Origin: Candidatus Latescibacterota bacterium
GTDB taxonomy: Bacteria; Latescibacterota; UBA2968
NCBI GenBank assembly: GCA_965204745.1
Contig: OZ242010.1
Span: 128,001-192,000 of the forward strand
DNA length: 64,000 nucleotides
Reading direction: 5' to 3'
Made by a program: the position numbers and the translations under genes. The notes beneath the pieces were generated by a model. It did no database searches. It saw only the letters and a list, made by a program, of their open reading frames with translations, and was not told the origin of the DNA. Positions within the stretch are counted from its first letter, which is position 1. Every line of letters starts with the position of its first letter. Shown piece after piece: positions 4,648 through 55,376 of the stretch.

Positions 4648-4701
4648 ATTTTTTCCTTTTTGGAAAGCGGTGGGAACTGATAGCTGACCGCTTGGGGATT
4701 A

Positions 4702-11776: not shown

Positions 11777-11959
11777 GGAAAAGACGGGGTTAACGCACGC
11801 GGCGGAGGGGGGAAGAGGAAGGGCACGCACACGGCGGGGCAGGGTGGCGGAGGGGATCGCACTTGGGCGGTTGGGTGGGGTTGCCTCACCTCTCCCGTCT
11901 TGCGTCTCACCGCAGGGGGTTGGGCGGGGTGGGAACTGACCACTAATTCCGGAGCTTCC

Positions 11960-24005: not shown

Positions 24006-24991
24006 TGCGAATTAAGAGTTGAATCCATCGCGTACTTGTCTTTTTTTGAGGGCTCAATCATTTCACCCTTAAAGGAAGGAGCACGCGATGGATTGGCAAG
24101 ATAAACTCATTCACTTGTATGTCTATATTTGTCAGCAGTATGACCAAAAGCATCTGTGGTTTTATACGGAACGCATGAGTAATAACGACACGCCGACCTT
24201 CACAGATGAAGAAGTGCTGACGATCTATTTGTTTGGGATCATGCAACAACACACGCAGATCAAGGCGATTTATACCTATACCAAGGATCATTTGTTCGAC
24301 TGGTTTCCCAATCTGCCCACTTATGCAGGCTATATCCAGCGGTTGAACCGCTTGTGTGTGGTCTTCGCCCCATTGATTGAACAAATCCAAAAGGATAGTC
24401 CCGCAACCGATGTCTCTGAACACACCTACTTGGTGGATTCCATGCCGATTGTCATGGCACAATCGGCACGTAGCGGAAAGGCATGTGTGGCTGAAGAACA
24501 ACGGGCCAACAAAGGCCGCTGCGCTTCCAAAAAGATGTGGTATTACGGCACCAAACTGCACATGGTCGCACAAGACCGCGAGAATGGCCTCCCGAAAGCA
24601 GAGTACTTCGGCTTGACAGGCGCAGCAGAGCATGACCTGACTGCTTTGCGACACGTCTTACCCGTTTTGCGTGATGGACACCTCTACGGCGATAAACTCT
24701 ACGCCGATCAGCCCTTAAAAGACACGCTTAGCAAACAGCAGAACCTGATCTTCGAGACGCCGGTGAAGCGAAAAAAGGGGCAAGAAAGCCTGACCGAGGC
24801 CGAAAAAGACTTTTCTCGGGCGGTTTCGAGCATGCGACAGCCTATAGAGGCCTTGTTCAGTTGGATTGAACGAAAGACGAACATCTCGATGGCGTCTCGG
24901 GTACGATCCTATGAGGGCTTACTCGTTCATGTCTTTGGGCGATTGACCGCGGCTTGCTTCTTACTCGCTTTCTACTCTTAATTCGCATTGT
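24002..24991 (+). mobile_element. IS982-family insertion sequence
   Basis: 18-bp inverted repeats ACAATGCGAATTAAGAGT (24002-24019) and ACTCTTAATTCGCATTGT (24974-24991), ~990 bp, one transposase ORF. No target duplication visible. Confidence 0.88.
24088..24981 (+). CDS. IS982-family DDE transposase
   Basis: FTDEEVLTIYLFG, LVDSMPI, KKMWYYGTKLH, YGDKLY, RQPIEALFSW. AAGGAG RBS. Stop lies inside the right IR. Confidence 0.88.
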   Translation: MDWQDKLIHLYVYICQQYDQKHLWFYTERMSNNDTPTFTDEEVLTIYLFGIMQQHTQIKAIYTYTKDHLFDWFPNLPTYAGYIQRLNRLCVVFAPLIEQIQKDSPATDVSEHTYLVDSMPIVMAQSARSGKACVAEEQRANKGRCASKKMWYYGTKLHMVAQDRENGLPKAEYFGLTGAAEHDLTALRHVLPVLRDGHLYGDKLYADQPLKDTLSKQQNLIFETPVKRKKGQESLTEAEKDFSRAVSSMRQPIEALFSWIERKTNISMASRVRSYEGLLVHVFGRLTAACFLLAFYS

Positions 24992-40500: not shown

Positions 40501-43500
40501 GTCACGCTGCCGGTGCTCGTCGTTTGCCCGGCCGCGACGGTCAGCGTCTTCGCCGTGCTCAGCATGTAATCGCCTACAACCGCAGGTGACACAGGCGTTA
40601 CCGAAACCGTGATCGTCGTCGCCGCGCTCGATGGGCGATTCAGCGTCGCCGTCACGGTTGAAACTGCGACGTTCTCCGAAATTGACGTAGGTGCCACCGC
40701 CATCGTTACGTCCGGCGCGGCCTCATCCTCTGAGATCGTCAAAGTCGCGTCGGGCACATTGCCCACGCCTTGGGCATTGCCCGCCGCACCGGATACGGTC
40801 ACGCGCTTGTTCGGCGCATGGGTCGTGTTGTTCACCGCCGTGATCGTCACACTGCCCGTGCTCGTCGTCTCGCCTGCCGCGAAGGTCAGTGTCTTCGTGT
40901 TCGATAGCGTGAAATCGCCCGCAACCGCAGGCGATACAGCCTCCGCTGATACCGTGATCGTCGTCGCTTCGCTCGACTTGTGAGACAAGGTCGCCGTGAT
41001 CGTGGAAATGCCGCTCGCCTCCGAAATCGACGCGGGCGACAGCGATAGTGCCACCGTCGGCGCGGCCTCATCGTCGGTGATCGTCAGCGTCACATCAGAC
41101 GGGGCAGACGCCAGATTGCCAGCCGCCACCGTTCCGGACACGGTCACGCGCTTGTTGGGCGCATCGGTCGTATCATTCACCGATGTGATCGTCACGCTAC
41201 CCGTGCTCGTCGTCACACTCGCCGCGATAGTCAGCGTGGTCGTGGCCGATAGCGTGAAGTCACCCGCAACCGCAGGCGATACAGCCTCCGCTGAAACCGT
41301 GATCGTCGTCGCCGTGGTCGCGGGGCGATTTAGCGTCGCCGTTACGGTCGAAACCTTGGCATTTTCAGAAATCGACGCAGGAGACAAAACCAACGTCACC
41401 TTTGCCACGTCGTCATCGGTAATCGTCAGCGTCGCAGCCGTGACCGATCCCGTGCCCACGCTGTTGGATGGCGTGCCCGTCACGGTCGCCATCCTGTCCC
41501 CCGAAGCGATGTTGTTGTCCGCCGTCGTGATGACCACCGTGTCCGATGTGTTCGCCGTTTGCCCGGCCGCGATGACAATCGTCGAATCCATCCCCACCGT
41601 GTAAGCACCGGTCACGGGCCGCACGGTGATCGTCGTCGCCGCGCTTGATGGGCGATTCAGCGTCGCTGTCACGGTTGAAACCGCGCCATTCTCAGAAATT
41701 GACGTAGGCACCACTGCCATCGTCACGTCCGGCGGGTCCTCATCCTCTGTGATCGTCAACGCCGTGCCGGTCACACTACTGCCCACGCCTTGGTCGTTGC
41801 TCACCTCAACGGGCACGGTCACACTGTTGTTCGGCGCATGGGTCGTGTTGTCCACTGCTGTGATGAGCACCGTGTCCGTCGCGTTCGCCGTTTGCCCGGC
41901 CGCGATGACAATCGTCGAATCCGTCGCCCCCACCGTGTAAGCACCAGGCACCGAGCGCACGGTGATCGTCGTGATCTCGCTCGACTTGTGAGACAAGGTC
42001 GCCGTGATCGTGGAAACGCCGCTCGCCTCTGAAATCGACGCGGGCGATAGCGTCAGTGCCACCGTCGGCGCGGCCTCATCGTCGGTGATCGTCAGCGTCA
42101 CGTCAGACGGGGCCGACGCCAGATTGCCAGCCGCCACCGTTCCGGACACGGTCACGCGCTTGTTCGGCGCATCGGTCGTATCATTCACCGATGTGATCGT
42201 CACGGTACCGGTGCTCGCCGTCGCATTCGCCGCAATCGTCAGCGTCTTCGTGGTCGATAGCATGAAATCGCCCGCAACCGCAGGCGACACAGCCTCCGCT
42301 GAAACCGTGATCGTCGTCGCATCGGTCGCGGGGCGATTTAGTGTCGCCGTTACGGTCGAAACCTTGGCATTTTCAGAAATCGACGCCGGAGACAAAACCA
42401 ACGTCACCTGCGCCATGTCGTCATCGGTAATCGTCAGCGTCGCAGCCGTGACCGATCCCGTGCCCACGCTGTTGGATGGCGTGCCCGTCACGGTCACCAT
42501 CCTGGCCCCCGAAGCGATGGCGTTGTCCACCGTCGTGATGAGCACCGTATCCGTCGCGTTCGCCGTTTGCCCGGCCGCGATGACAATCGTCGAATCCGTC
42601 GCACCCACCGTGTAAGCACCAGGCACCGAGCGCACGGTGATCGTCGTCGCCGCGCTCGATGGGCGAGACAGCGTCGCCGTCACGGTTGAAACCGCGACGG
42701 TCTCCGAAATTGACGTAGGTGACACTGCTATCGTCACGTCCGGCGGGTCCTCATCTTCTGTGATCGTCAACGCCGTGCCGGTCACACTACTGCCCACGCC
42801 TTGGTCGTTACGTGGCACAACGGACACGGTCACACTGTTGTTAGGCGCATGAATCATGTTGTCCACTGCTGTGATGAGCACCGTGTCCGTCGCGTTCGCC
42901 GTTTGTCCGGCCGCGATGACAATCGTCGAATCCGTCGCCCCCACCGTGTAAGCCCCGGCCACCGGGCGCACGGTGATCGTCGTCGCTTCGCTCGATTCGT
43001 GAGACAGGGTCGCCGTGATCGTGGAAATGCCGCTCGCCTCCGAAATCGACGCGGGCGACAGCGACAGTGCCACCGTCGGCGCGGCATCATCGTCTGTAAT
43101 CGTCAGGGTCACGTCAGACGGGGCAGACGCCATATTGCCACCCGTCGCCGTTCCGGACACGGTTACGCGCTTGTCCGGCGCATCGGTCGTATTGTTCACC
43201 GATGTGATCGTCACGATGCCCGTGCTCGTCGTCTCACTCGCCGCAATCGTCAGCGTCTTCGCGGCCGATAGCGTGAAATCGCCCGCAACCGCAGGCGATA
43301 CAGCCTCCGCTGATACCGTGATCGTCGTCGCCTCGGTCGCGGGGCGATTTAGTGTCGCCGTTACGGTCGAAACCTTGGCATTTTCAGAAATCGACGTCGG
43401 AGACAAAACCAACGTCACCTGTGCCACGTCGTCATCGGTAATCGTCAGCGTCGCAGCCGTGACCGACGACCCTACGCCCACGCTGTTAGCTGGCGTGCCC

Positions 43501-46500
43501 GTCACGGTTACCGTCTTGTCCCCCGAAGCGATGTTGTTGTTCACCGTCGTGATCGTCACGGTGCCGGTGCTCGTCGTCTCGCCCGCCGCTATCGTCAGCG
43601 TCTTCGCCGTGCTCAGCGTGTAATCGCCTACAACCGCAGGTAATACAGGCGTTACTGAAACCGTGATCGTCGTCGCCGCGCTTGATGGGCGATTCAGCGT
43701 CGCCGTCACGGTTGAAACTGCGACGTTCTCCGAAATCGACGTAGGCGCCACCGCCATCGTTACCTCCGGCGCGGCCTCATCCTCTGTGATCGTCAAAGTC
43801 GCGTCGGGCACATTGCCCACGCCTTGGGCATTGCCCGCCGCACCGGATACGGTCACGCGCTTGTTCGGCGCATGGGTCGTGTTGTTCACGGCCGTGATCG
43901 TCACACTGCCCGTGCTCGTCGTCTCGCCTGCCGCGAAGGTCAGTGTCTTCATGGTCGATAGCGTGAAATCGCCCGCAACCGCAGGCGATACAGCCTCCGC
44001 TGATACCGTGATCGTCGTCGCTTCGCTCGACTTGTGAGACAAGGTCGCCGTGATCGTGGAAACGCCGCTCGCCTCTGAAATTGACGCGGGCGACAGCGAC
44101 AGCGCCACCGTCGGCGCGGCCTCATCGTCGGTGATCGTCAGCGTCACATCAGACGGGGCAGACGCCAGATTGCCAGCCGCCACCGTTGCAGACACGGTCA
44201 CGCGCTTGTCCGGCGCATCGGTCGTATCGTTCACCGATGTGATCGTCACGCTGCCCGTGCTCGCCGTCGCATTCGCCGCAATCGTCAGCGTGGTCGCGGC
44301 CGATAGCGTGAAATCACCCGCAACCGCAGGCGATACAGCCTCCGCTGAAACCGTGATCGTCGTCGCCGTGGTCGCGGGGCGATTTAGTGTCGCCGTTATG
44401 GTCGAAACCTTGGCATTTTCAGAAATCGACGTCGGAGACAAAACCAACGTCACCTGCGCCATGTCGTCATCGGTAATCGTCAGCGTCGCAGCCGTGACCG
44501 ATCCCGTGCCCACGCTGTTGGATGGCGTGCCCGTCACGGTCACCATCCTGGCCCCCGAAGCGATGTTGTTGTCCACCGTCGTGATGACCACCATGTCCGA
44601 TGTGTTCGCCGTTTGCTCGGCTGCGATGACAATCGTCGAATCCGTCGCCCCCACCGTGTAAGCACCAGGCACCGAGCGCACGGTGATCGTCGTCGCCGCG
44701 CTCGATGGGCGATTCAGCGTCGCCGTCACGGTTGAAACCGCGCCAGTCTCCGCAATCGACGTAGGTGACACCGCCATCGTCACGTCCGGCGGGTCCTCAT
44801 CCTCTGTGATCGTCAACGCCGTGCCGGTCACACTACTGCCCACGCCTTGGTCGTTGCTCACCTCAACGGGCACGGTCACACTGTTGTTCGGCGCATGAAT
44901 CATGTTGTCCACTGCTGTGATGAGCACCGTATCCGTCGCGTTCGCCGTTTGCCCGGCCGCGATGACAATCGTCGAATCCGTCGCACCCACCGTGTAAGCA
45001 CCAGGCACCGAGCGCACGGTGATCGTCGTCGCCGCGCTCGATTCGTGAGACAGGGTCGCCGTGATCGTGGAAACGCCGCTCGCCTCTGAAATTGACGCGG
45101 GCGACAGCGACAGTGCCACCGTCGGCGCGGCCTCATCGTCGGTGATCGTTAGGGTCACGGCAGACGGGGCAGACGCCATATTGCCACCCGTCGCTGTTCC
45201 AGACACGGTTACGCGCTTGTCCGGTGCATCGGTCGTATCGTTCACCGATGTGATCGTCACGGTACCGGTGCTCGTCGTCACACTCGCCGCGATAGTCAGC
45301 GTGGTCGCGGTCGATAGCGTGAAATTGCCCGCAACCGCAGGCGATACAGCCTCCGCTGATACCGTGATCGTCGTCGCCTCGGTCGCGGGGCGATCTAGCG
45401 TCGCCGTTACGGTCGAAACCTCGGCATTTTCAGAAATCGACGCAGGAGACAAAATCAACATCACCTGCGCCACGTCGTCATCGGCAATCGTCAGCGTCGC
45501 AGGAGTGACCGACGACCCTACGCCCACGCTGTTAGTTGGCGTGCCCGTCACGGTTACCGTCTTGTCCCCCGAAGCGATGTTGTTGTTCACCGTCGTGATC
45601 GTCACGCTGCCCGTGCTCGTCGTCTCGCCCGCCGCGACGGTCAGCGTCTTGTCCGTGCTCAGCGTGTAATCGCCTACAACCGCAGGTAACACAGGCGTTA
45701 CTGAAACCGTGATCGTCGTCGCCGCGCTCGATGGGCGAGACAGCGTCGCCGTCACGGTCGAAACCGCGCCAGTCTCCGCAATTGACGTAGGCTCCACTGC
45801 TATCGTCACGTCCGGCGCGGCCTCATCCTCTGTGATCGTCAACGCCGTGCCGGTCACAATACTGCCCACGCCTTGGTCGTTATGTGGCACAACGGGCACG
45901 GTCACACTGTTGTTCGGCGCATGGGTCGTGTTGTCCACCGCTGTGATGATCACCGTGTCCGTCGCGTTCGCCGTTTGCCCGGCCGCGATGACAATCGTCG
46001 AATCCGTCGCCCCCACCGTGTAAGCACCAGGCACCGAGCGCACGGTGATCGTCGTCGCTTCGCTCGACTTGTGAGACAAGGTCGCCGTGATCGTGGAAAC
46101 GCCGCTCGCCTCTGAAATCGACGCGGGCGATAGGGTCAGTGCCACCGTCGGCGCGGCATCATCGTCGGTGATCGTCAGGGTCACATCATCCGGGGCCGAC
46201 GCCAGATTGCCAGCCGCCACCGTTCCGGACACGGTCACGCGCTTGTCCGGTGCATCGGTCGTATCGTTCACCGATGTGATCGTCACGGTGCCCGTGCTCG
46301 TCGTCACACTCGCCGCGATAGTCAGCGTGGTCGTGGCCGATAGCGTGAAATCGCCCGCAACCGCAGGTGATACAGCCTCCGCTGAAACCGTGATCGTCGT
46401 CGCCGTGGTCGCGGGGCGATTTAGTGTCGCCGTTACGGTCGAAACCTTGGCATTTTCAGAAATCGACGTCGGAGACAAAATCAACGTCACCTGCGCCACG

Positions 46501-49500
46501 TCGTCATCGGCTATCGTTAGCGTCGCAGCAGTGACCGATCCCGTGCCCACGCTGTTAGTTGGCGTGCCCGTCACGGTTACCGTCTTGTCCCCCGAAGCGA
46601 CGCTGTTGTCCACCGTCGTGATTGTCACGGTGCCCGTGCTCGTCGTCTCGCCCGCCGCTATCGTCAGCGTCTTCGCCGTGCTCAGCGTGTAATCGCCTCC
46701 AACCGCAGGTGACACAGGCGTTACTGAAACCGTGATCGTCGTCGCCGCGCTCGATGGGCGAGACAGCGTCGCCGTCACGGTTGAAACCTCGCCAGTCTCC
46801 GCAATCGACGTCGGGGACACCGCTATCGTTACGGCCGACGCGGCCTCATCCTCTGTGATCGTCAACGCCGTGCCGGTCACACTACTGCCCACGCCTTGGT
46901 CGTTACGTGGCACAACGGACACGGTCACACTGTTGTTAGGCGCATGAATCATGTTGTCCACTGCTGTGATGATCACTGTATCCGGCGCGTTCGCCGTTTG
47001 CCCGGCCGCGATGACAATCATCGAATCCGTCGCCCCCACCGTGTAAGCACCAGGCACCGAGCGCACGGTGATCGTCGTCGCTTCGCTCGACTTGTGAGAT
47101 AGGGTCGCCGTGATCGTGGAAACGCCGCTCGCCTCTGAAATCGACGCGGGCGATAGCAACAGTGCCACCGTCGGCGCGGCCTCATCGTCGGTGATCGTCA
47201 GGGTCACATCAGATGGGGCCGACGCCATATTGCCACCCGTCGCTGTTCCAGACACGGTCACTTCCTTGTCCGGTGCATCGGTCGTATCGTTCACCGAGGT
47301 GATCGTCACGGTACCCGTGCTCGTCGTCACACTTGCCGCGATAGTCAGCGTGGTCGTGGCCGATAGCGTGAAATCGCCCGCAACCGCAGGCGATACCGCC
47401 TCCGCTGATACCGTGATCGTCGTCGCCTCGGTCGCGGGGCGATTTAGTCTCGCCGTTACGGTCGAAACCTCGGCATTTTCAGAAATCGACGTCGGAGACA
47501 AAACCAATGTCACCTGCGCCACGTCGTCATCGGCTATCGTTAGCGTAGCAGCCGTGACCGACGACCCTACGCCCACGCTGTTGGATGGCGTGCCCGTCAC
47601 GGTTACCGTCTTGTCCCCCGAAGCGACGCTGTTGTTCACTGTTGTGATCGTCACGGTGCCGGTGCTCGTCGTCTCGCCCGCCGCGACGGTCAGCGTCTTC
47701 GCCGTGCTCAGCGTGTAATCGCCTACAACCGCAGGTAATACAGGCGTTACTGAAACCGTGATCGTCGTCGCCGCGCTCGATGGGCGATTCAGCGTCGCCG
47801 TCACGGTTGAAACCGCGATGTTCTCCGAAATCGACGTAGGTGACACTGCTATCGTCACCTCCGGCGCGGCCTCATCCTCTGTGATCGTCAAAGTCGCGGC
47901 GGTCACACTGCCCACGCCTTGGGCGTTGCGTGGCACAACATTCACGGTCACATCGTTGTCCGGCGCATGGGTCGTGTTGTTCACCGCTGTGATGAGCACC
48001 GTATCAGACGTGTTCGCCGTTTGTCCGGCCGCGATGACAATCGTCGAATCTGTCCCCACCGTGTAAGCCCCGGCCACCGGGCGCACGGTGATCGTCGTCG
48101 CTTCGCTCGACTCGTGAGATAGGGTCGCCGTGATCGTGGAAACGCCGCTCGCCTCTGAAATCGACGCGGGCGATAGCGACAGTGCCACCGTCGGCGGATC
48201 GTCGTCGTCTGTAATCATCAGGGTCACGGCAGACGGGGCAGACGCCAGATTGCCAACCGCCACCGTTGCAGATACGGTCACGCGCTTGTCCGGCGCATCG
48301 GTCGTATTGTTCACCGATGTGATCGTCACAAGACCCGTGCTCGCCGTCGCATTCGCCGCGACGGTCAGCGTCTTCGCGGTCGATAGCGTGAAATCGCCCG
48401 CAACCGCAGGTGATTCCGCCGTAGCTGAAACCGTGATCGTCGTCGCCTTGGTCGTGGGGCGATCCAGTGTCGCTGTGATCGTGGAAACCCCGCCATCCTC
48501 TGAAATCGACGCAGGAGACAAAACCAACATCACCTGCGCCACATCGTCATCGGCTATCGTCAGCGTCGCAAGAGCGACCGTTCTCGTGCTCGCGCTGTTG
48601 TCCACCGCGCTGAACACGGTCACCCTCTTGTCCCCCGAAGCGGTGTTGTTGTCCACGGCCGTGATGACCACCGTGTCCGACGCGTTTGCCGTTTGCCCGG
48701 ACGCGATGATGATCGTCGAATCCATCCCCACCGTGTAAGCCTCGGCCACCGGGCGCACGGTGATCGTCGTCGTCGCGTCCAACGACTGTGTCAGCCTCGC
48801 CGTCACGGTCGAAACGCCGCCGTTTTCCGAGATCGTCGAGGGCGTAAGTGTCAACATCACTATTTCTGGTTGCAGATCAAATTGCACAGTGGTGTCCATG
48901 CCGTCATACTTCAAGACCGGATACTGATTCACCGTGCCAAAGTGCCACGGATCGTCGTCGCCGGGTTGTCCGTCGATGTCGATGTTCCAATTTTCGTAGA
49001 TGCCGGTGTATCCTGTAACGGATACGAGTTCGGCGGTGGTCTTGCTGGTGACGCCGCTGGTGTCGGGGTCAGGGCTGTGGACGGCGCCGATGGCACGGCT
49101 CAGTCCGCTGGTTTCGGTGTCATAGTAGCTGTTGGATATGTCGTTGGTGTTTTGGTTTAAGCCTCCGATAAATCCGCCAGAGCCGTGCCATCGGCGCCAG
49201 TTACCGGCGCGGACGCGGTCAGTGGAGCTGACAGGGCCGATGGCGTAAGAGTTTATTATAACACTGTTAAAAATTCTGCCCACTAGACCGCCGACATACC
49301 TACTGCCGCTGACAGATGCCGTAGAGTAGCTCGTGGAGATCTTTCCGCGGATATCGGTCCGGCCTACTAATCCACCGATAGTGTAACCCCCACGGGGAGA
49401 GGGATCGGGCCACCGCCACTCAATGGGATTGAAACCGGCGACCCTGCCGGTGGTGTAGCAAGCGACAATGGTGCCGTGATTTTGTCCGGCCAGAATACCT

Positions 49501-52500
49501 ACATGAGAAATTCCCGTGATATTGGCGTTGGTTATGCCCAGGGTTTCGACGCGGGAGAAGGCGCCAAGTTTGAAGAACAGGCCGAGGAAATTGGGGTTGG
49601 TGCCGCTACCGTAGATGGTGCGGTTGATGAACAGGTTGTTTATGGTGTGACCGTTGCCCTTGAAGTAGCCTGTGTAGCTGTTGCTGGTTCTGCAACAGGC
49701 GATGGGTAGCCAGCCGGAGCCGCCGTCCCAGTATTTGCCGCTGTGGTCGGTGGCATCTACATCGCCATCGCCATTGCTGTCGAAATCGAGGCTTGCGGTG
49801 AGTTCGTAGCCGACGCAGCGCCCGGACGGGCACCCCATGCGCTCCGCGGCAGCGGTGAAACGGTTGGGGAATGCAGCGTTGTAAGCGTTGTAGTTCATGG
49901 TATCAGCAGGGGCTACGAAACCATCGCCGTTGAGGTCATAGCGTATGGCGTTGAGTTGGTCGAGGTTGGCTACATCGATGTAACCGTCGTTATCCTCGTC
50001 GTAGTCGATCACATTCTCTGTGATCATCAGGGTCACGGTAGACCGGGCCACTGCTCCATTGCCACCCGCCACCGTTGCAGACACGGTCACGCGCTTGTCC
50101 GACGCCTGGATCATATTGTTCGCCGCTGTGATCGTCACAAGGCCCGTGCTCGTCGTCACACTCGCCGCGATAGTCAGCGTGGTCGCGGCCGATAGCGTGA
50201 AATCGCCCGAAACCGCAGGCGGTACCGCCGTAGCTGAAACCGTGATCGTCGTCGCCTCGGTCGCAGGGCGATCCAGCGTTGCCGTGATCGTGGAAACCCC
50301 GCCAGCCTCCGAAATCGACGACGGAGATAAAACCAACGTCGCATGCGGCCGGTCGTCATCGGTAATCGTCAGCGTCGCAGCCGTGACCGTTCCCGTGCCC
50401 GCGCTGTTGTCCACCGCGCTCAACACGGTCACCGTCTTGTCCCCCGCCGTTATGGCGTTGTCCACCGTCGTGATGACCACCGTGTCCGACGCGTTCGCCG
50501 TTTGCCCGGCCGCAATGATGATCGTCGAATCCATCCCCACCGCGTAAGCACCGGTCACGGGCCGCACGGTGATCGTCGTCACCGCGCTCGATGGGCGAGA
50601 CAGGGTCGCCGTCACGGTCGAAACCTCGCCAGTCTCCGCAATCGACGTCGGGGACACCTCCATCGTCACGTCCGGCGGGTCCTCATCCTCTGTGAACGTC
50701 AACTCCGCGGTGACCACGTTTATGCCGTGCCAGTTAGTCACCTGAACCCACACGCCACGGCTGTTGTCCGGCGCATGAATCATGTTGTCCACTGCTGTGA
50801 TGATCACTGTATCCGTGGTCGCCGTTTGCCCGGCCGCGATGGTAATCGTCGAATTCGTCGCCCCAACCGTGTACACGCCAGGCACCGGGCGCACTGTGAT
50901 CGACGTCGGCGCAACCGAACTACCCGATAGCGTCGCCGTGACCGTGGCAACACCGCCGTTCTCCGAAATCGACGACGGGTTCACCGCCATCGTCACTGTC
51001 GGCGTGGACTCATCGTCGGCAATCGTCAGGATCGCGTGCGACGTCGTTATATCGTTTGCCCCTGAAACCGTTGCCGCCACGGTCACGCGCTTCCACGGCG
51101 CATCGATGGCGTTGTCCACCGCTGTGATCGTCACGGTGCCCGTGCTCGTCGTCGCATTTGCCGCTATCGTTAGCGTCTTCGCGGTCGAGAGCGTAAAATC
51201 GCCCGCAACCGCAGGTGCCACCGCTGTCGCCGAGACCGTGACCACCACTGCGGATGTCAGTGGTTTCGTCAATGCTGCCGTCACAGTCGTCTGATTGGCT
51301 GTACCACTCTCGTCGATCTGTCGTGGCGTAAGTATCAATGTCACGAGTCGTGGTTGCAGATTAAATTGCAAGTCGGTGTCCATGTCGGCATACTTCAAGA
51401 CCGGATACTGACTCGCCGTGCCAAAGTGCCACGGATCGTCGTTGCCCCCTTGCCCGTCGATGTCGATGTTCCAGTTTGAGTAGATGCCGGTGTAGCCGGT
51501 AATGGATCGGAGTTCGTGGGTGGTCTTGCCGACGCCGAGCGCGCTGGTGCCTTTCCCACTGCTGTGCATGTCCCAATAGCTGAAGTTTGCGATGTTCGTA
51601 GTCGCTCGTACCCCGCCGCAGGCGAACGTTGCACCACTGTAAGTATAACAGGTGCTTTCGTCATTCGCATTCCCTACTAACCCGCCGGCCCAGCTGGCTT
51701 CGACGCTGGGGTACTCCTCTGCACCACCGACGCCGACGCCGACGGCGGGGAGGACCGCGCCCTGATCACGCTCACTTCTTATTATCCTGCCGAAAGCGTT
51801 GCCTCCGGTGACTATGCCGTTGGCGTAAGAGCTTGATATATGGGTGTTCTGCCACGCAGTGCCTACCAGACCACCGACGTCTCTGACTTCGCTGACATTT
51901 GCCATGGAGTAGCTCGCGTGGATAGTTCCCTGGAAGGAAAAACCGACTAATCCACCGATACTGTGGCTGTTGACCCCCCACGGGGTGAAGTGCGGGGTTG
52001 GGGTGCCTACTGGAGCGAAATCTTGGCCAGAGACCGTGCCGTGTGTGTAGCAGGCGACAATGGTACCTTTGAAAAGTATTCCGGCCAGAATACCTAGGTA
52101 AGAACCTCCTGTGACATTGGCGTTGATTATGCCCAGGGATTCGACGCGGGAGCCGATTCCAAGGCTATAGAACAACCCGAGTTTAGAGACAGAAAAGCCA
52201 ACAGTGCTGGTTCTCTTTATGAACAGGTTTTTTATGGTGTGGCCGTTGCCCTTGAAGTAGCCTAAGTAGCCCGATTGGTGCCCTTGGTCCCCCCCGGGCA
52301 CCCAGTAGCGGTAGTCGTACCTGTCTCCATAGAAGGCCCCAGAGGTTCCGGCGATTGGTCTCCAGCCGCGGCCGTTGTCCCAGTATTTGCCTCCGTGGTC
52401 GTCGGCATCTACATCGCTATCGCCATCGCTGTCGAAGTTGAGGTCGTTCAGCAGTTCGTAGCCGACGCATCCAGAAGTGGGGCAGCCCATGGGTCCAACA

Positions 52501-55376
52501 GAAGAGGTGGGAGTGACGATGCGGTCGGGGAATGCGGCGTTGTAGGGCCGGGTGTAGGTCAGGGTATCGACAGTGGGCCATATCCCTGGAGTGGGAAATA
52601 TCTCTGGCCTCGGGAGGTCCACGACGCCATCGGCGTTTATGTCACTGCGAATGGCAGAGAGCTGATCGAGGTTGGTTATATCGATGTAACCGTCGTTATC
52701 CAGGTCGTAGTCAACAAAGCCGTCGTTGTCTATAATCGTCAAAGAGCCGGTCACGTTGCCCACGCCTTGGTCGTTGCTCACCCCAACAACCACGGACACT
52801 ACGATATCCGCGGTATTGACTGCGTTGTCCACGGCCGTGAGGATCACCGTGTCCGACGCGTTCGTCGTGTCCCCGGCCGCGATGGTGATCGTCGAATCCG
52901 CCCCCACCGTGTAAGTATCCGCCACCGGGCGCACGGTGATCGTCGTGATCGCGCTCGATAGATGCGACAGGGTCGCCGTGACCGTGGAAACGCCGAGCGC
53001 CTCCGAAATCGTCGAGGGCGACATCGACAAGGTTATGTCCGGCGCGGCCTCATCGTCGGTGATCGTCAGCATCAGGGTAGCCGGGATCGTCGCCCCATTG
53101 TCGCTCTGCACAATTGTGGGCACGGTCACTCTGTTGTCCGGCGCATCGGTTATATTGTCCACGGCCGTGAGGATCACCGTGTCCGACGCGTTCGCGGTTT
53201 GTCCTGCCGCGATGGTGATCGTCGAATCCGTCCCCACGGTATAAGCCCCCGCCACCGGGCGCACCGTGATCGTCGTCGCCAGGGTCGATGCGCGAGACAG
53301 GGCCGCCGTGATCGTGGCAACACCGCCGTTCTCCGAAATCGTTGACGGGTTCGCCGCCAGCGTCACTGTCGGCGCGGCCTCATCGTCGGTGATCGTCAAT
53401 GTCGCGTTCAATACCGACAATGTGTCGCTCGAAGCTGACCCCGAGACGGTCACGCGCCTGTGCCGCGCATCGGCGGTCGCGTTGTTCACCGCTGTGATCG
53501 TCACAAGTCCCGTGCTCGTCGTCGCATTCGCCGCGACAGTCAGCGTCTTCGCGGCCGATAGCGTGAAATCGCCCGCAACCGTAGGCGATACCCCTGTCGC
53601 AGCCACCGTGATCGTCACTGCGTTGTTCACCGCTCTCGGCAATGTTGCCGTTACAGTCGTCCGATTGGTCGCACCGCTCTCGTCGATCGTCGAAGGCGCG
53701 AGTGTCAACCTCGCCACCGCAATCTGGGCGGCAAATTGCGCGGTGGTGTCCATGCCTGCATACTTCAAGACCGGATACTGATACGCCGTGCCAAAGGTCC
53801 ACGGATCATCGTCGCCGAGTTGCCCGTCGATGTCGATGTTCCAGTTTTCGTAGATGCCGGTGTATGTCGTAACGGATACGAGATCGCTGGTGATATAGCC
53901 GGTGCCGACAGCACTGGTGTCTTGTCCACTGGTCAAAGTGTCCCAATAATTGTCGCGTGTGCTGGTGTTTCTCTTCAGCCCTACTAACCCGCCGACGCGG
54001 GAGGTTCCGGTGACCCGGCCGGTGGCGTAAGAGTTTATTACCCTACCTGGAGGATACCCTGTGGATGGCGAGTAAACAGCTCCGCCCAGCAAACCGCCGA
54101 CACCGATGTGACCGCTGACAGATGCAGTGGAGTAGCTCGTAGAGATAATTCCTAAGGATTCGCCGACTAATCCACCTGCATAATGTGAGTAGCGAGAATT
54201 TAAGGCCCTGACCGTGCCTGTGGTGTAGCAGGCGACAATTTCGCCAGCAGTGTAAGCGGCCAGAATGCCTGCACCACCTAAGGTTGTGATATTGGCGTTG
54301 GTTATGCCCAGGGTTTCGACGCGGGATCCGGGGCCAAGCTGGTAAAACAGACCTGCATACGCGCTGCCATCCCGATAGAGACGGAGGTCGCTGAATAGGT
54401 TGTTTATGGTGTGACTGTTGCCCTTGAAGTTGCCTGTGAGGCTGTAGGGTAGCCAGCCAGCGCCGTTGTTCCAGTATTTGCCGCTGTGGTCGTTGGCATC
54501 TACATCGCCATCGCCGTCGCTGTCGAAGTCGAGGCTTGCGGTGAGTTCGTAGCCGACGCATCCGGAAGTGGGGCAGCCCATGAGTCCAACGGAAGCGTTA
54601 GCAGTGGCGATGCGGTTGGGGAATGCGGCGTTGTAGGCGGCACCCTCCCGCAGATTTGTCGCGACGGAGATGGAATCGAGCCATCCCTGAGTAAAAGGGC
54701 GACTTCCCGCAGCGCGCCATGCCGCGATGCTGACCGCTAAGGCAAGGGAATCGGCGACCGAATGGGCTCTATCCCGGGCGCCATCGGTGTCCATGTCATA
54801 GCGAATGGCATTGAGCTGATCGAGGTTGGCTACATCGATGTAACCGTCGTTATCGAAGTCGTAGTCAACCTCATCGTCGGTGATCGTCAGGGTCACGGCA
54901 GACGGGGCCAATGCCCCATTGCCACCCGCCGCCGTTGCAGACACGGTCACGCGCTTGCTCGGCACCTGGGTCCTATCGTCCACCGCCGTGATCGTCACGA
55001 TCCCCGTGCTCGTCGTCGCATTCGCCGCTATCGTCAGCGTGGTCGCGGCCGATAGCGTGAAATCGCCCGCAACCGCAGGCGATACAGCCGTAGCTGAAAC
55101 CGTGATCGTCGTCGCCTCGGTCGCAGTGCGATCCAGCGTTGCCGTGATCGTGGAAACCCCGCCGTTCTCCGAAATCGACGACGGAGACAAAACCAACGTC
55201 ACCTGGGCGTTTTGGGCAAAAGCCGACCCCGATGCCATCAGCAAAACCAGCACGATATAGAACCACACCCCAAGAAGGGGATGGCCGCCATGAACCCCGG
55301 TTTTCGCGGGAGGACAAGCGGTGGGAACCGAGGGCCTAAATGGGTTCAAACAGCGTCTGAAAATTTCGGCAATCAT
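34560..55376 (-). CDS. Giant (6938 aa) surface adhesin: Calx-beta/Ig-like stalk, three GLUG-like variable domains, PE linker, four He_PIG-like domains, dockerin/EF-hand tail
   Basis: One 20.8-kb ORF. Signal-peptide-like segment (WFYIVLVLLMASGSAFAQ), dozens of ~110-aa xTLxLSPxSISE...LTITDD domains, (PE)n linker, LPEGL(T/S)FD...SGTP domains, DFNGDGVVNFADF...DLNGDGQIDYDDF. Confidence 0.9.
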   Translation of the reverse strand: MIAEIFRRCLNPFRPSVPTACPPAKTGVHGGHPLLGVWFYIVLVLLMASGSAFAQNAQVTLVLSPSSISENGGVSTITATLDRTATEATTITVSATAVSPAVAGDFTLSAATTLTIAANATTSTGIVTITAVDDRTQVPSKRVTVSATAAGGNGALAPSAVTLTITDDEVDYDFDNDGYIDVANLDQLNAIRYDMDTDGARDRAHSVADSLALAVSIAAWRAAGSRPFTQGWLDSISVATNLREGAAYNAAFPNRIATANASVGLMGCPTSGCVGYELTASLDFDSDGDGDVDANDHSGKYWNNGAGWLPYSLTGNFKGNSHTINNLFSDLRLYRDGSAYAGLFYQLGPGSRVETLGITNANITTLGGAGILAAYTAGEIVACYTTGTVRALNSRYSHYAGGLVGESLGIISTSYSTASVSGHIGVGGLLGGAVYSPSTGYPPGRVINSYATGRVTGTSRVGGLVGLKRNTSTRDNYWDTLTSGQDTSAVGTGYITSDLVSVTTYTGIYENWNIDIDGQLGDDDPWTFGTAYQYPVLKYAGMDTTAQFAAQIAVARLTLAPSTIDESGATNRTTVTATLPRAVNNAVTITVAATGVSPTVAGDFTLSAAKTLTVAANATTSTGLVTITAVNNATADARHRRVTVSGSASSDTLSVLNATLTITDDEAAPTVTLAANPSTISENGGVATITAALSRASTLATTITVRPVAGAYTVGTDSTITIAAGQTANASDTVILTAVDNITDAPDNRVTVPTIVQSDNGATIPATLMLTITDDEAAPDITLSMSPSTISEALGVSTVTATLSHLSSAITTITVRPVADTYTVGADSTITIAAGDTTNASDTVILTAVDNAVNTADIVVSVVVGVSNDQGVGNVTGSLTIIDNDGFVDYDLDNDGYIDITNLDQLSAIRSDINADGVVDLPRPEIFPTPGIWPTVDTLTYTRPYNAAFPDRIVTPTSSVGPMGCPTSGCVGYELLNDLNFDSDGDSDVDADDHGGKYWDNGRGWRPIAGTSGAFYGDRYDYRYWVPGGDQGHQSGYLGYFKGNGHTIKNLFIKRTSTVGFSVSKLGLFYSLGIGSRVESLGIINANVTGGSYLGILAGILFKGTIVACYTHGTVSGQDFAPVGTPTPHFTPWGVNSHSIGGLVGFSFQGTIHASYSMANVSEVRDVGGLVGTAWQNTHISSSYANGIVTGGNAFGRIIRSERDQGAVLPAVGVGVGGAEEYPSVEASWAGGLVGNANDESTCYTYSGATFACGGVRATTNIANFSYWDMHSSGKGTSALGVGKTTHELRSITGYTGIYSNWNIDIDGQGGNDDPWHFGTASQYPVLKYADMDTDLQFNLQPRLVTLILTPRQIDESGTANQTTVTAALTKPLTSAVVVTVSATAVAPAVAGDFTLSTAKTLTIAANATTSTGTVTITAVDNAIDAPWKRVTVAATVSGANDITTSHAILTIADDESTPTVTMAVNPSSISENGGVATVTATLSGSSVAPTSITVRPVPGVYTVGATNSTITIAAGQTATTDTVIITAVDNMIHAPDNSRGVWVQVTNWHGINVVTAELTFTEDEDPPDVTMEVSPTSIAETGEVSTVTATLSRPSSAVTTITVRPVTGAYAVGMDSTIIIAAGQTANASDTVVITTVDNAITAGDKTVTVLSAVDNSAGTGTVTAATLTITDDDRPHATLVLSPSSISEAGGVSTITATLDRPATEATTITVSATAVPPAVSGDFTLSAATTLTIAASVTTSTGLVTITAANNMIQASDKRVTVSATVAGGNGAVARSTVTLMITENVIDYDEDNDGYIDVANLDQLNAIRYDLNGDGFVAPADTMNYNAYNAAFPNRFTAAAERMGCPSGRCVGYELTASLDFDSNGDGDVDATDHSGKYWDGGSGWLPIACCRTSNSYTGYFKGNGHTINNLFINRTIYGSGTNPNFLGLFFKLGAFSRVETLGITNANITGISHVGILAGQNHGTIVACYTTGRVAGFNPIEWRWPDPSPRGGYTIGGLVGRTDIRGKISTSYSTASVSGSRYVGGLVGRIFNSVIINSYAIGPVSSTDRVRAGNWRRWHGSGGFIGGLNQNTNDISNSYYDTETSGLSRAIGAVHSPDPDTSGVTSKTTAELVSVTGYTGIYENWNIDIDGQPGDDDPWHFGTVNQYPVLKYDGMDTTVQFDLQPEIVMLTLTPSTISENGGVSTVTARLTQSLDATTTITVRPVAEAYTVGMDSTIIIASGQTANASDTVVITAVDNNTASGDKRVTVFSAVDNSASTRTVALATLTIADDDVAQVMLVLSPASISEDGGVSTITATLDRPTTKATTITVSATAESPAVAGDFTLSTAKTLTVAANATASTGLVTITSVNNTTDAPDKRVTVSATVAVGNLASAPSAVTLMITDDDDPPTVALSLSPASISEASGVSTITATLSHESSEATTITVRPVAGAYTVGTDSTIVIAAGQTANTSDTVLITAVNNTTHAPDNDVTVNVVPRNAQGVGSVTAATLTITEDEAAPEVTIAVSPTSISENIAVSTVTATLNRPSSAATTITVSVTPVLPAVVGDYTLSTAKTLTVAAGETTSTGTVTITTVNNSVASGDKTVTVTGTPSNSVGVGSSVTAATLTIADDDVAQVTLVLSPTSISENAEVSTVTARLNRPATEATTITVSAEAVSPAVAGDFTLSATTTLTIAASVTTSTGTVTITSVNDTTDAPDKEVTVSGTATGGNMASAPSDVTLTITDDEAAPTVALLLSPASISEASGVSTITATLSHKSSEATTITVRSVPGAYTVGATDSMIVIAAGQTANAPDTVIITAVDNMIHAPNNSVTVSVVPRNDQGVGSSVTGTALTITEDEAASAVTIAVSPTSIAETGEVSTVTATLSRPSSAATTITVSVTPVSPAVGGDYTLSTAKTLTIAAGETTSTGTVTITTVDNSVASGDKTVTVTGTPTNSVGTGSVTAATLTIADDDVAQVTLILSPTSISENAKVSTVTATLNRPATTATTITVSAEAVSPAVAGDFTLSATTTLTIAASVTTSTGTVTITSVNDTTDAPDKRVTVSGTVAAGNLASAPDDVTLTITDDDAAPTVALTLSPASISEASGVSTITATLSHKSSEATTITVRSVPGAYTVGATDSTIVIAAGQTANATDTVIITAVDNTTHAPNNSVTVPVVPHNDQGVGSIVTGTALTITEDEAAPDVTIAVEPTSIAETGAVSTVTATLSRPSSAATTITVSVTPVLPAVVGDYTLSTDKTLTVAAGETTSTGSVTITTVNNNIASGDKTVTVTGTPTNSVGVGSSVTPATLTIADDDVAQVMLILSPASISENAEVSTVTATLDRPATEATTITVSAEAVSPAVAGNFTLSTATTLTIAASVTTSTGTVTITSVNDTTDAPDKRVTVSGTATGGNMASAPSAVTLTITDDEAAPTVALSLSPASISEASGVSTITATLSHESSAATTITVRSVPGAYTVGATDSTIVIAAGQTANATDTVLITAVDNMIHAPNNSVTVPVEVSNDQGVGSSVTGTALTITEDEDPPDVTMAVSPTSIAETGAVSTVTATLNRPSSAATTITVRSVPGAYTVGATDSTIVIAAEQTANTSDMVVITTVDNNIASGARMVTVTGTPSNSVGTGSVTAATLTITDDDMAQVTLVLSPTSISENAKVSTITATLNRPATTATTITVSAEAVSPAVAGDFTLSAATTLTIAANATASTGSVTITSVNDTTDAPDKRVTVSATVAAGNLASAPSDVTLTITDDEAAPTVALSLSPASISEASGVSTITATLSHKSSEATTITVSAEAVSPAVAGDFTLSTMKTLTFAAGETTSTGSVTITAVNNTTHAPNKRVTVSGAAGNAQGVGNVPDATLTITEDEAAPEVTMAVAPTSISENVAVSTVTATLNRPSSAATTITVSVTPVLPAVVGDYTLSTAKTLTIAAGETTSTGTVTITTVNNNIASGDKTVTVTGTPANSVGVGSSVTAATLTITDDDVAQVTLVLSPTSISENAKVSTVTATLNRPATEATTITVSAEAVSPAVAGDFTLSAAKTLTIAASETTSTGIVTITSVNNTTDAPDKRVTVSGTATGGNMASAPSDVTLTITDDDAAPTVALSLSPASISEASGISTITATLSHESSEATTITVRPVAGAYTVGATDSTIVIAAGQTANATDTVLITAVDNMIHAPNNSVTVSVVPRNDQGVGSSVTGTALTITEDEDPPDVTIAVSPTSISETVAVSTVTATLSRPSSAATTITVRSVPGAYTVGATDSTIVIAAGQTANATDTVLITTVDNAIASGARMVTVTGTPSNSVGTGSVTAATLTITDDDMAQVTLVLSPASISENAKVSTVTATLNRPATDATTITVSAEAVSPAVAGDFMLSTTKTLTIAANATASTGTVTITSVNDTTDAPNKRVTVSGTVAAGNLASAPSDVTLTITDDEAAPTVALTLSPASISEASGVSTITATLSHKSSEITTITVRSVPGAYTVGATDSTIVIAAGQTANATDTVLITAVDNTTHAPNNSVTVPVEVSNDQGVGSSVTGTALTITEDEDPPDVTMAVVPTSISENGAVSTVTATLNRPSSAATTITVRPVTGAYTVGMDSTIVIAAGQTANTSDTVVITTADNNIASGDRMATVTGTPSNSVGTGSVTAATLTITDDDVAKVTLVLSPASISENAKVSTVTATLNRPATTATTITVSAEAVSPAVAGDFTLSATTTLTIAASVTTSTGSVTITSVNDTTDAPNKRVTVSGTVAAGNLASAPSDVTLTITDDEAAPTVALSLSPASISEASGISTITATLSHKSSEATTITVSAEAVSPAVAGDFTLSNTKTLTFAAGETTSTGSVTITAVNNTTHAPNKRVTVSGAAGNAQGVGNVPDATLTISEDEAAPDVTMAVAPTSISENVAVSTVTATLNRPSSAATTITVSVTPVSPAVVGDYMLSTAKTLTVAAGQTTSTGSVTITTVNNNIASGDKTVTVTGTPTNSVGVGSSVTDATLTITDDDVAQATLVLSPTSISENAEVSTVTATLNRPATTATTITVSAEAVSPAVAGDFTLSAATTLTIAANATASTGTVTITSVNDTTDAPDKRVTVSGTAAGGNMASAPSDVTLMITDDDAAPTVALSLSPASISEASGISTITATLSHESSAATTITVSAEAVSPAVAGDFTLSTTKTLTFAAGETTSTGSVTITAVNNTTHAPNKRVTVSGVAGNAQGVGNVPDATLTITEDEAPPDVTMAVSPSSISENVAVSTVTATLNRPSSAATTITVRSVPGAYTVGATDSTIVIAAGQTANTSDTVIITTVDNNNASGDRMVSVTGTPSNSVGTGSVTDATLTITDDDVAQVTLVLSPTSISENGGVSTITATLDRPATDATTITVSAEAVSPAVAGDFTLSATTTLTIAASVTTSTGTVTITSVNDTTDAPNKRVTVSATVAVGNLASAPSDVTLTITDDDDAPTVALSLSPASISEASGVSTITATLSHKSSEATTITVRSVPGTYTVGATDSTIVIAAGQTANTSDTVLITAVDNTTHAPDNSVTVSVVPRNDQGVGSSVTGTALTITEDEAAPAVTIAVSPTSIAETGEVSTVTATLNRPSSAATTITVRSVPGAYTVGATDSTIVIAAGQTANASDMVVITTVDNNNASGDRMVTVTGTPSNSVGTGSVTDATLTITDDDVAQVTLVLSPASISENAKVSTVTATLNRPATTATTITVSAEAVSPAVAGDFTLSATTTLTIAASVTTSTGTVTITSVNDTTDAPNKRVTVSATVAAGNLASAPSDVTLTITDDDAAPTVALSLSPASISEASGVSTITATLSHKSSAATTITVSAEAVSPAVAGDFTLSTTKTLTVAAGETTSTGSVTITAVNNTTHARDKRVTVSGVAGNAQGAGNVTAATLTITEDEAAPDVTMAVSPSSISENIEVSTVTATLNRPSSAATTITVSVPTSSDYTLSTATTLTVSAGQTTSTGTVTITTVNNNIASGSKTVTVTGTPSNSVGVGSSVTPATLTITDDDVAQVMLVLSPSSISENGGVSTITATLDRTATAATTITVSALAVSPAVAGDFTLSATTTLTIAASVTTSTGTVTITAVNDTTDAPNKRVTVSATVAAGNLASLSSSEPLTITDDDDPPTVMLTPDPSSISENGAVSTITATLSHKSSAITTITVRSVPGAYTVGATDSTIAIAAGQTANTADTVIITSVDNNRDAPPRNVVVTGVARNDQGAGSVTGGSLTLTDDDVAPAVTMVVSPASISENGGVSTVTATLSHPSSEATTIAVSVPTSSDYTLSTATTLTVAAGQTTSTGIVTITTVNNNIASGSKTVTVTGTPSNSQGAGSVTSATLTITDDDVPQVTLVLSPVAITENGGVSTVTATLDRPATEATTITVSTEAESSVDDFTLSTTTTLTVAAGQTTSTGTVTITAVDNSFNEPDKRVTVSATVTGGNLASLASPVTLTIEEDDPPERPATPEPEPEPEPEPEPEPEPEPEPDTELTFTDAVDPQSYYQHRAIKPLTLPAAVLYGDETMRTLTYSLPDLPEGLTFDAETLTVSGTPLKAIKKAIYTLTATEEDGDEAGLSFFLTVIANPIPSFGDASVAAQAYMRKQEIESLTLPQATGGDKPLTYALTPDLPEGLSFDKKTRVLSGTPLEAIADTTYTLTATDRNGDEATLMFILSVMTDPIPTFGETTVAAQGYVQYQKIDPLTLPPATGGDKPLTYALLPDLPEGLTFDAETRIASGTPIKAMDETTYTLTATDGNGDEVHLLFTLEVQNWMPTFGDTTIDPQSYLVNQEIASLTLPQASNDDGMLVYILLPFLPEGLSFDPTTRTLSGLPTEAKAQATYTLSALEADGDTASLPFTLEVSLPSPDFNGDGVVNFADFSNFVVKYESRLGQKRYDALYDLNGDGQIDYDDFRIFAAIYGSTGETTAIGNWDLPP
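35898..35960 (-). repeat. (Pro-Glu)n linker hexamer repeat
   Basis: ggttct/ggctcg/ggctct hexamers encoding PEPEPE. Confidence 0.85.
36300..48860 (-). repeat. About 12 tandem ~1.0-kb units (three Ig-like domains each) in the adhesin stalk
   Basis: Equivalent positions recur at 36910, 37930, 38941, 39961, 40996, 42004, 43015, 44050, 45061, 46087, 47110 and 48130 (spacing 1008-1035 bp). Confidence 0.9.

Follow-up and report, generated by a model that had tools for sequence, protein, structure and literature searches.

Introduction

In the part of PMC7695701 available to us, the N-terminal domain (NTD) of the pneumococcal immunoglobulin A1 (IgA1) protease is described as an independently folding beta-helix that has the IgA1 Fab as its ligand and serves as a gate, and as a helix without protruding elements. 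Here we describe a window of 64,000 nucleotides from Candidatus Latescibacterota bacterium (GenBank assembly GCA_965204745.1, contig OZ242010.1, forward-strand positions 128,001 to 192,000), in which one giant gene encodes three domains of the same predicted GLUG-type fold, referred to as heads, which unlike the pneumococcal helix carry long loops. We consider it reasonably probable that the region encodes three paralogous, putatively ligand-binding heads of a giant modular surface adhesin, and that the diversity of their loops arose by ordinary processes with no dedicated mutator. The heads are most likely ligand-binding domains whose turn loops evolve quickly.

Two kinds of solved GLUG structure resemble the heads. 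The whole head aligns (model residues 3-378) with BACOVA_03286 of Bacteroides ovatus (PDB 3n6z, named 'putative IgA1 protease'), which has the same capped GLUG beta-helix, although that entry is a single small protein of unknown function, not a multi-head giant, and has no long copy-specific loops. The NTD of the M26 IgA1 proteases (6xja and 6xjb from S. pneumoniae, 7uvk from G. haemolysans) shares the GLUG motif and aligns over about 253 residues with Z-scores of 20-21. The M26 enzymes differ in possessing a metalloprotease domain; no such domain, and no peptidase family at E <= 0.01, was detected where the window protein was scanned (all three heads, a single spacer and the last 812 aa, the remainder being a repeat array with a 345-nt period).

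Giant adhesins of the LapA/RTX type carry distal ligand-binding modules on a stalk of immunoglobulin (Ig)-like domains. The window protein is similar in that thousands of residues of tandem Ig-like (Calx-beta/LapA-like) repeats would hold its modules off the cell, and it differs in having no RTX or type I secretion signal that we could see, in ending with a dockerin as anchor, and in spacing three GLUG beta-helices along the stalk. Cohesin-dockerin display of the cellulosome type offers another parallel: the window protein has a C-terminal type I dockerin and the genome encodes cohesins, one of them with a sorting domain of the type IX secretion system (T9SS). In contrast to cellulosomes, the cargo here would be a putative adhesin family and not glycoside hydrolases, and the cohesin-dockerin pairing is a predicted one.

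Multigene surface-protein families such as Borrelia vls, Neisseria pilS and Treponema tprK diversify by gene conversion. The family to which the heads belong resembles them in its many paralogues, conserved flanks, divergent centres and recombination tracts. However, the head genes are complete, each with signal and anchor ends of its own, rather than silent cassettes, no single expression site was seen, and the window heads have neither tracts nor donors. Sponge symbionts are described as having expansions of eukaryote-like proteins (ANK, LRR, TPR, NHL, FN3 and others; PMC12993501), and the head family, likewise from a host-associated lineage, mixes fn3, cadherin-like, He_PIG and Calx-beta domains; the expanded domains named in the part of that article available to us do not include GLUG heads.

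Predicted fold and composition of the three heads

The three heads (391-465 aa) aligned at 65% mean column identity in a three-way alignment and matched one another by tblastn with E-values of 1e-81 to 1e-108. All three segments passed the gathering cut-off of Pfam Glug (PF07581; 31.2, 26.3 and 27.4 bits against 20.5), while no NCBIfam family was found for any head. A preliminary description of the region, made from the sequence alone, had placed three domains with a common scaffold at about 53733-54869, 51363-52715 and 48880-50009 and had listed their fixed blocks. We found the three domains in one open reading frame (ORF), with hidden Markov model (HMM) envelopes within about 35 nt of these positions; every listed block was visible in the three-way alignment, and the loops quoted in the description were present.

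Head 3, modelled by AlphaFold2 (AF2) with 109 paralogues as the alignment, was predicted to form a beta-helix with a predicted local distance difference test score (pLDDT) of 89 and a predicted template modelling score (pTM) of 0.91, with dips only at residues 201-210, 271-280 and 311-320. The model of head 2, for which 70 of the 109 paralogues were used, had a pLDDT of 81.5, and its low blocks (129-150, 241-250, 311-341 and 361-370) were the long loops. The head-3 model matched 3n6z with a Z-score of 27.0 (root-mean-square deviation 3.1 A, 265 residues aligned, 28% identity; Foldseek E 8e-7), the N-terminal beta-helix of streptococcal and Gemella IgA1 proteases with 20-21, and polysaccharide lyases and tailspikes, the next class down, with 11.5 at most. 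On these models the heads share the GLUG beta-helix fold of 3n6z and the IgA1 protease NTD, and the earlier proposal of a binding scaffold with variable loops agrees with a predicted fold that is known, in the latter, to bind protein. Each head has about six beta-helix rungs between an N-terminal cap, with a DxDxDG motif and an invariant Cys pair, and a conserved C-terminal cap. Twenty-eight columns were invariant across 109 heads; these were glycines, hydrophobic residues and the Cys pair, with no acid/base set.

The preliminary description had called the loops rich in W, Y, R and P. Loop columns were indeed enriched in W (3.9 vs 1.4%), R (7.5 vs 3.4%) and P (7.5 vs 2.7%) but not in Y (5.0 vs 5.9%), and this W/R/P-rich make-up distinguished the window loops from the loops of other heads (24% vs 9.9%). 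It had also proposed that the loops use codons rare in the stalk. This held against the stalk (ATA in 5/279 loop codons and 11/3,948 stalk codons) but was not specific to the loops, as the core used ATA equally (18/970), and TTA was found in 10/970 core codons against 1/279 in loops. The rare-codon contrast is one of head versus stalk, not loop versus framework, and because the stalk is a young tandem array its codon usage provides no independent baseline.

Anatomy of the giant protein

From N- to C-terminus the protein consists of a signal-like segment, one stalk repeat, head 1, three repeats, head 2, four repeats, head 3, a long run of 110-115-aa repeats, a Pro-Glu linker, four He_PIG domains and the dockerin. 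Its parts are as follows, in window coordinates.

34560-55376, minus strand: giant ORF of 6,938 aa, intact over 20.8 kb (ORF list, translation and domain scans)
55212..55376, minus strand: putative signal peptide of about 55 aa, hydrophobic, ending ...SAFAQ (read by eye from the translation)
53700..54878, minus strand: head 1, aa 167-559, predicted GLUG beta-helix (HMM envelope, Pfam)
51330..52724, minus strand: head 2, aa 885-1349, predicted GLUG beta-helix with the longest loops (HMM envelope, Pfam, AF2)
48846..50018, minus strand: head 3, aa 1787-2177, predicted GLUG beta-helix (HMM envelope, Pfam, AF2)
37051..47897, minus strand: tandem DNA array of the stalk, period 345 nt, 31.9 copies, encoding Ig-like repeats of 110-115 aa
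54879-55211, 52725-53699 and 50019-51329, minus strand: further stalk repeats around the heads
about 35895-35990, minus strand: Pro-Glu linker preceding the He_PIG domains
34780..35860, minus strand: four He_PIG (putative Ig) domains, 105.7 bits (Pfam)
34629..34769, minus strand: C-terminal type I dockerin / EF-hand pair (Pfam)
54642..54746, minus strand: insertion at residues 45-79 of head 1, in the N-terminal cap
52566..52619, minus strand: loop at residues 36-53 of head 2, with an 18-nt in-frame deletion at 52586 in sequencing runs X11, X1 and X5
52296..52352, minus strand: loop at residues 125-143 of head 2, in the N-terminal cap before the first rung, with two nonsynonymous strain differences
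51972..52025, minus strand: loop at residues 234-251 of head 2, in the turn from the third strand of one rung to the GGLVG strand of the next
51690..51791, minus strand: loop at residues 312-345 of head 2, pLDDT below 50, with a 6-nt in-frame deletion and four substitutions in run X10
51597..51662, minus strand: loop at residues 355-376 of head 2, in the turn after GGLVG, with two nonsynonymous strain differences
49392..49433, minus strand: loop at residues 196-209 of head 3, with a W>L difference in runs X10 and X5
49182..49211, minus strand: loop at residues 270-279 of head 3, overlapping one arm of a 19-nt inverted repeat
49056..49085, minus strand: loop at residues 312-321 of head 3
49083..49198: perfect 19-nt inverted repeat in head 3, arms 49083-49101 and 49180-49198

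About 45 Ig-like repeats make up the stalk; the heads are placed within its N-terminal third and the dockerin at the opposite end, in keeping with the earlier suggestion that they are held far from the cell. A window spacer scored 20.9 bits against Pfam LapA (cut-off 27), and Calx-beta domains were carried by related giants and by four of the eight family members scanned. The window dockerin scored 22.9 bits, exactly the cut-off, in the protein scan and 28.0 bits, over the cut-off, in the genome scan (genome coordinates 162629-162769).

Position of the loops in the scaffold

Across the 109-head alignment, insertion-prone sites were observed only in the turn before and the turn after each VGGLVG strand, while the turn from the SY strand to the third strand had at most one extra column. 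Insertion length had a median of 0-4 residues per site and a maximum of 63. The most variable core columns flanked the insertion sites, and GGLVG and SYS were nearly invariant. Since most of the 106 other aligned heads had no residues at the sites of the window loops, we regard these loops as copy-specific insertions and not as alternative versions of a shared loop. All three long loops of head 3 followed the third strand of a rung (rungs 3, 5 and 6, by DSSP of the model), and from this register we infer that the loops line one edge or face of the predicted helix. Such an edge or face is where beta-helix proteins usually build ligand grooves.

In the arrangement that we propose, each head would be a GLUG-type parallel beta-helix in which every rung keeps the glycine-rich GGLVG strand and the short turn that follows the SY strand unchanged, and the two turns flanking the GGLVG strand would carry all of the length variation and the most variable residues.

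The head family in the genome

The source genome is a single contig of 5,482,115 bp. Searching it by tblastn with the three heads gave 144 merged intervals, and the HMM gave 170 envelopes, including 109 full-length heads of 322-465 aa (median 353) with pairwise amino-acid identities of 0.40-1.00 (median 0.54). Head-bearing DNA comprised 55 stop-to-stop frames and 342,459 bp, or 6.2% of the genome, and the family was estimated at about 135 heads in about 42 loci, some seven of which were split by frameshifts. The three window heads are thus not unique; within a very large set of paralogues they are unexceptional.

The genes of the family appear complete. In the Pfam-scanned family ORFs (8 of the 41 long ones), heads were combined with fn3, Calx-beta, cadherin-like, He_PIG and dockerin modules. 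The C-terminal end was a two-repeat DVDGDG-helix module (a weak dockerin, 22.4 bits) in 34 genes, and He_PIG domains with a canonical dockerin in five genes including that of the window. In at least 11 of the 34 genes, which end in '...SHFQ/E', we also observed, at their 3' end, a conserved open frame of about 79 aa that overlaps the stop codon in another reading frame and encodes a canonical type I dockerin (e.g. genome coordinates 235380-235526, 416114-416260 and 3194610-3194756). This frame may reflect programmed frameshifting, a small ORF or what is left of the ancestral C-terminus.

Two genes, at genome coordinates 2613717-2620114 and 5081635-5088491, carried the same one-base frameshift in their first head within identical local sequence, so that either a pseudogene was duplicated or conversion spread the frameshift.

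Search for a diversification mechanism

No reverse transcriptase (RT) was found in the window, and no recombinase among the 25 ORFs scanned with Pfam out of its 77 listed ORFs of at least 150 aa, in agreement with the preliminary description, which had seen neither nearby. The sole RVT_1 match in the genome (5010684-5012420, 579 aa), 4.8 Mb from the heads, has a QGSPCSP motif and a long C-terminal extension coded by AT-rich DNA; we take it to be a retron/Abi-like defence gene. No direct repeat of 13 nt or more involving a loop was found in or near the heads, and no pair of template and variable repeats. In 36 phylogenetically independent pairs of close paralogues, 8.8% of core cells and 12.6% of loop cells differed, and the ratio of nonsynonymous to synonymous rates (dN/dS) was 0.19-1.24. 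The substitutions in close pairs were dominated by transitions (AG 689, CT 655, AT 158), and neither they nor the differences between strains showed an adenine bias.

The preliminary description had attributed the loops to diversification by an unknown mechanism, and this was not supported: the loops are insertions that most other heads lack, close paralogues differ nearly equally in core and loop, and we found neither an RT with template and variable repeats nor donors. Silent donor cassettes, a search for which had been suggested, were rejected as the source of the window loops, as none of the ten loops of 8 aa or longer had a copy elsewhere in the genome (blastn-short E >= 0.006, best match 18 nt; tblastn E >= 0.003).

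Within the perfect inverted repeat of head 3, the framework codons for SRAIGA, read as their reverse complement, give the loop codons for WRRWHGS, 78 nt away, which suggests that this one loop segment was made by an inverted duplication or a template switch. Inverted repeats as a general source of loops were rejected; arms of at least 18 nt were present in 1 of 109 heads vs 0 of 545 shuffles, and arms of at least 12 nt in 4 of 109 vs 27 of 545. Direct repeats of at least 14 nt spaced 78-93 nt apart, the distance of one rung, were observed in 39 of 109 heads vs 9 of 545 shuffles, and several of the paralogue 'insertions' were duplicated rungs.

Recombination was evident elsewhere in the family. 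Identical runs too long for the overall identity occurred in 605 of 5,886 head pairs (pairs below 90% nucleotide identity). Restricting these to pairs below 80% identity with log10P < -8 left 254 pairs, of which 228 were between loci, with tracts of up to 190 nt in 92 of the 109 heads; 0 of 570 codon-shuffled controls passed. The tracts lay only in alignment columns 1-180 (N-terminal cap) and 600-741 (C-terminal cap), never in the middle of the beta-helix, and some heads had the same caps with unrelated middles while others had the reverse. The three window heads had no significant tract with any head (best log10P -5.2, threshold -5.77), and their best DNA matches elsewhere were at most 75% identical. 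In the caps they grouped by themselves as a clade (support 0.93); in the middles their branches were two to three times longer. The dN/dS of 30 independent close pairs was 0.35 in the N-terminal cap, 0.66 in the middle and 0.40 in the C-terminal cap, and the window heads differed from each other in the middle of the beta-helix by 0.32-0.37 per nonsynonymous site (pN) and 0.37-0.48 per synonymous site (pS).

From these results we propose that loop diversity probably comes from several ordinary processes at work in a gene family that has been duplicated many times: insertions at turns, one of them traceable to the 19-nt inverted duplication; duplication of rungs, in paralogues; point substitutions under relaxed or diversifying selection; in-frame insertions and deletions between strains; and, in other family members, homologous recombination through the conserved caps.

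Differences between strains

Strain differences were taken from assembled contigs of four runs in four studies, out of 15 runs that contain part of the head region, aligned to the window at 88% likeness; 40 of the 324 differences were listed. Two contigs of run X10 covered 51417-52775 (1,359 nt, head 2), and their 7 and 11 differences were all listed. These 18 substitutions fell in 15 codons, 13 of them changed nonsynonymously and two synonymously. Ten of the 15 changed codons were in loop columns, against a share of 31% of the covered residues for such columns (hypergeometric P 0.004), and after neighbouring changes were collapsed into events, 7 of 10 remained in loops (P 0.012). Both in-frame deletions in head 2 were also in loops, one of 6 nt in X10 (with one of three gap rows also in X5) and one of 18 nt in X11, X1 and X5. 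Compared with the framework, the loops change more rapidly from strain to strain, and most of this change consists of nonsynonymous substitutions and in-frame indels. Conservation of the loops across strains had been named in the preliminary description as a finding that would speak against it; given the loop bias of the changes in head 2, such conservation was not observed.

Differences were unevenly distributed over the heads. Run X10 was identical to the window over 946 nt of pieces, mainly in head 1, and 1.3% different in head 2; run X11 was identical over 720 nt of head 2 and different at 16 of 481 positions in head 1. Head joints seen in the strain contigs were rejected as rearrangements, their sides being at most 44 nt long in repeat-rich sequence at 88% likeness.

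Probable anchoring and surface display

The genome contains 53 Dockerin_1 matches at E <= 0.01, of which 46 exceeded the Pfam cut-off, and three cohesin matches. Two of the cohesins are at 3220839 and 3719649, and the third is on a protein of 1,086 aa (genome coordinates 1964271-1967528) that combines a dockerin-like pair, the cohesin (45.2 bits) and a Por_Secre_tail T9SS sorting domain (29.5 bits). From its domains, this protein is a candidate cell-surface anchor for the 53 dockerin matches. The C-terminal dockerin of the giant protein probably ties the end of the stalk to such a T9SS-exported, cohesin-bearing protein on the cell surface, and docking by the C-terminus would place the heads at the far end. 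A predicted complex of this cohesin with the window dockerin, run without controls, had a median score of 0.27, the mark being 0.34, and speaks neither for nor against the pairing.

Distribution

The source bacterium is sponge-associated. The 15 public runs that contain part of the head region come from seven studies; where a label is given it is that of a sponge, marine or unspecified metagenome, and six runs have coded organism names only. In the phylum survey, a head match at E <= 1e-20 was found in 18 of 168 genomes, and within the genus in five of 20 other species. First-look head candidates numbered 155 in the source genome and at most 36 in any other of the 168 genomes, so that an expansion occupying 6.2% of the genome is unmatched in size among those searched. 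Against 1.84 billion representatives, the head profile matched 97,098 proteins, 34,280 of them at E <= 1e-30 and many with 10-29 matched stretches, which indicates that multi-head GLUG proteins are common in metagenomes. Among the literature matches listed we found no description of a multi-head GLUG protein family or of this expansion, and no paper that brings GLUG and sponges together.

Searches with the giant protein in other species gave matches to the stalk only, covering 17-66% of the query region at no more than 55% identity, and no orthologous heads were found. In the nearest species the likely positional orthologue is a protein of 1,057 aa adjoining a single-copy UPF0182 gene (3974-7147 of that locus), with one stalk repeat, an fn3 domain and no GLUG head; as judged by eye from its translation, the C-terminal region consists of He_PIG repeats and a dockerin, and it shares 55% identity with the C-terminal 812 aa of the giant protein. 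Given this headless positional orthologue, the heads and the long stalk look like additions within the source lineage. Giant head-bearing ORFs in two further genomes were distant (E 1e-38 to 1e-47) and located elsewhere on their contigs.

Interpretation and alternative explanations

Several observations weigh against the adhesin reading that we prefer. The giant protein itself has no recognisable T9SS or other outer-membrane export signal, and the putative common loop face is deduced from rung register and DSSP of the models. With 7 of about 42 loci split by frameshifts, some of the family may be in decay. Relaxed constraint would explain the high dN/dS and the loop bias of the strain changes as well as diversifying selection would. 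The strain comparison involves few counts (15 codons), adjacent changes may have arisen together as one event, and assembled contigs of 4 of 15 runs cannot show variation within a sample.

Among the alternatives, programmed cassette variation would treat the roughly 135 heads as a library and the caps as recombination handles, with cores swapped among expressed genes including the window heads. The overlong identical tracts in 605 pairs (254 by the strict threshold, with none in the controls), their confinement to the caps, and the existence of heads with like caps and unlike middles, or the reverse, all fit this mechanism, but mosaic ends also arise passively through unequal crossing-over and gene conversion in any repeat family. 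As the window heads have no significant tracts, no DNA match above 75% and no loop copies elsewhere, and as no expression-site architecture or invertase was seen, we judge it unlikely. Neutral drift, in which the loops would be unconstrained decoration on a structural spacer or a partly decaying family and their variability functionally meaningless, seems to us quite unlikely. It would account for the low pLDDT of the loops, for close pairs differing only 1.4 times more in loop than in core columns, for a mean dN/dS below 1 (0.66 in the middle segment), and for frameshifted family members, including the frameshift common to two genes. Against it stand the intact heads and 20.8-kb ORF, the 28 invariant columns, the confinement of insertions to two of three turns, the distinct W/R/P-rich make-up of the window loops (24% vs 9.9%) and the 13 nonsynonymous to two synonymous strain changes.

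A catalytic role is another alternative: the heads might be beta-helix polysaccharide lyases or hydrolases with glycans of sponges or algae as substrates, and the loops would then shape the substrate cleft. Pectate, alginate and fucoidan lyases and tailspikes did align with the head model (Z 10-11.5) and the window has a sulfatase gene, but such Z-scores are at the level of any beta-helix, with a large gap below the GLUG structures (27 and 21); moreover, in the structurally solved GLUG homologues the helix is a binding or gating module and not catalytic, no enzyme family was obtained from Pfam or NCBIfam, and the invariant residues hold no acid/base set. This leaves an enzymatic role very unlikely in our estimation, even though PMC7081726, with reference to Farag et al. 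2017, speaks of cellulosome-affiliated enzymes in Latescibacteria. Targeted hypermutation by a diversity-generating retroelement (DGR) or a similar dedicated mutator is largely refuted and would now be a considerable surprise. Variable loops on the conserved scaffold of a surface protein, in a genome with one RT, are what would suggest it, but that RT, with its QGSPCSP motif, is encoded 4.8 Mb from the heads, neither the heads nor their surroundings contain a pair of template and variable repeats, close-paralogue substitutions are dominated by transitions, strain differences lack an adenine bias, and the window loops differ in length. To our knowledge, DGRs do not produce such length differences.

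The wider family is a more interesting object than the three heads, and a more novel reading could still hold there. Tentatively, and with doubt outweighing belief, we raise combinatorial surface variation, in which about 135 heads in about 42 dockerin-tagged genes would be exchangeable, with the nearly identical caps as handles, the fast-evolving, loop-bearing cores as specificity cassettes and a cohesin scaffold for display. If true, such a system would give a bacterium a repertoire built on a solenoid, with a function comparable to that of variable-receptor or antigenic-variation families, for binding or evading changing host, phage or particle ligands. The homogenised caps and divergent cores in any case illustrate cleanly, in a natural setting, how a solenoid scaffold can recombine in modules. 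For the uncultured symbionts of sponges, attachment to and communication with the host are largely inferred from expansions of 'eukaryote-like' domains; on the adhesin reading, the heads provide a concrete, testable candidate for host or particle recognition. The locus also carries a caution, that copy-specific loops on a conserved scaffold do not alone imply a dedicated diversification mechanism.

Neighbouring genes

The sole mobile-element gene among the 25 window ORFs scanned was a DDE transposase ORF (24088-24981, plus strand; DDE_Tnp_1_3, 39.9 bits). Close to the giant gene, the minus strand at 24961-27927 encodes a protein of 988 aa with ten Ldl_recept_b (YWTD) repeats (340 bits) and a LapA-like domain, which is another eukaryote-like surface protein. 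The window also contains the sulfatase gene (11705-13294, plus strand) and a subtilase gene with HYDIN/ASH-type Ig domains (16871-19765, minus strand), both typical of marine host-associated bacteria that degrade glycans and matrix.

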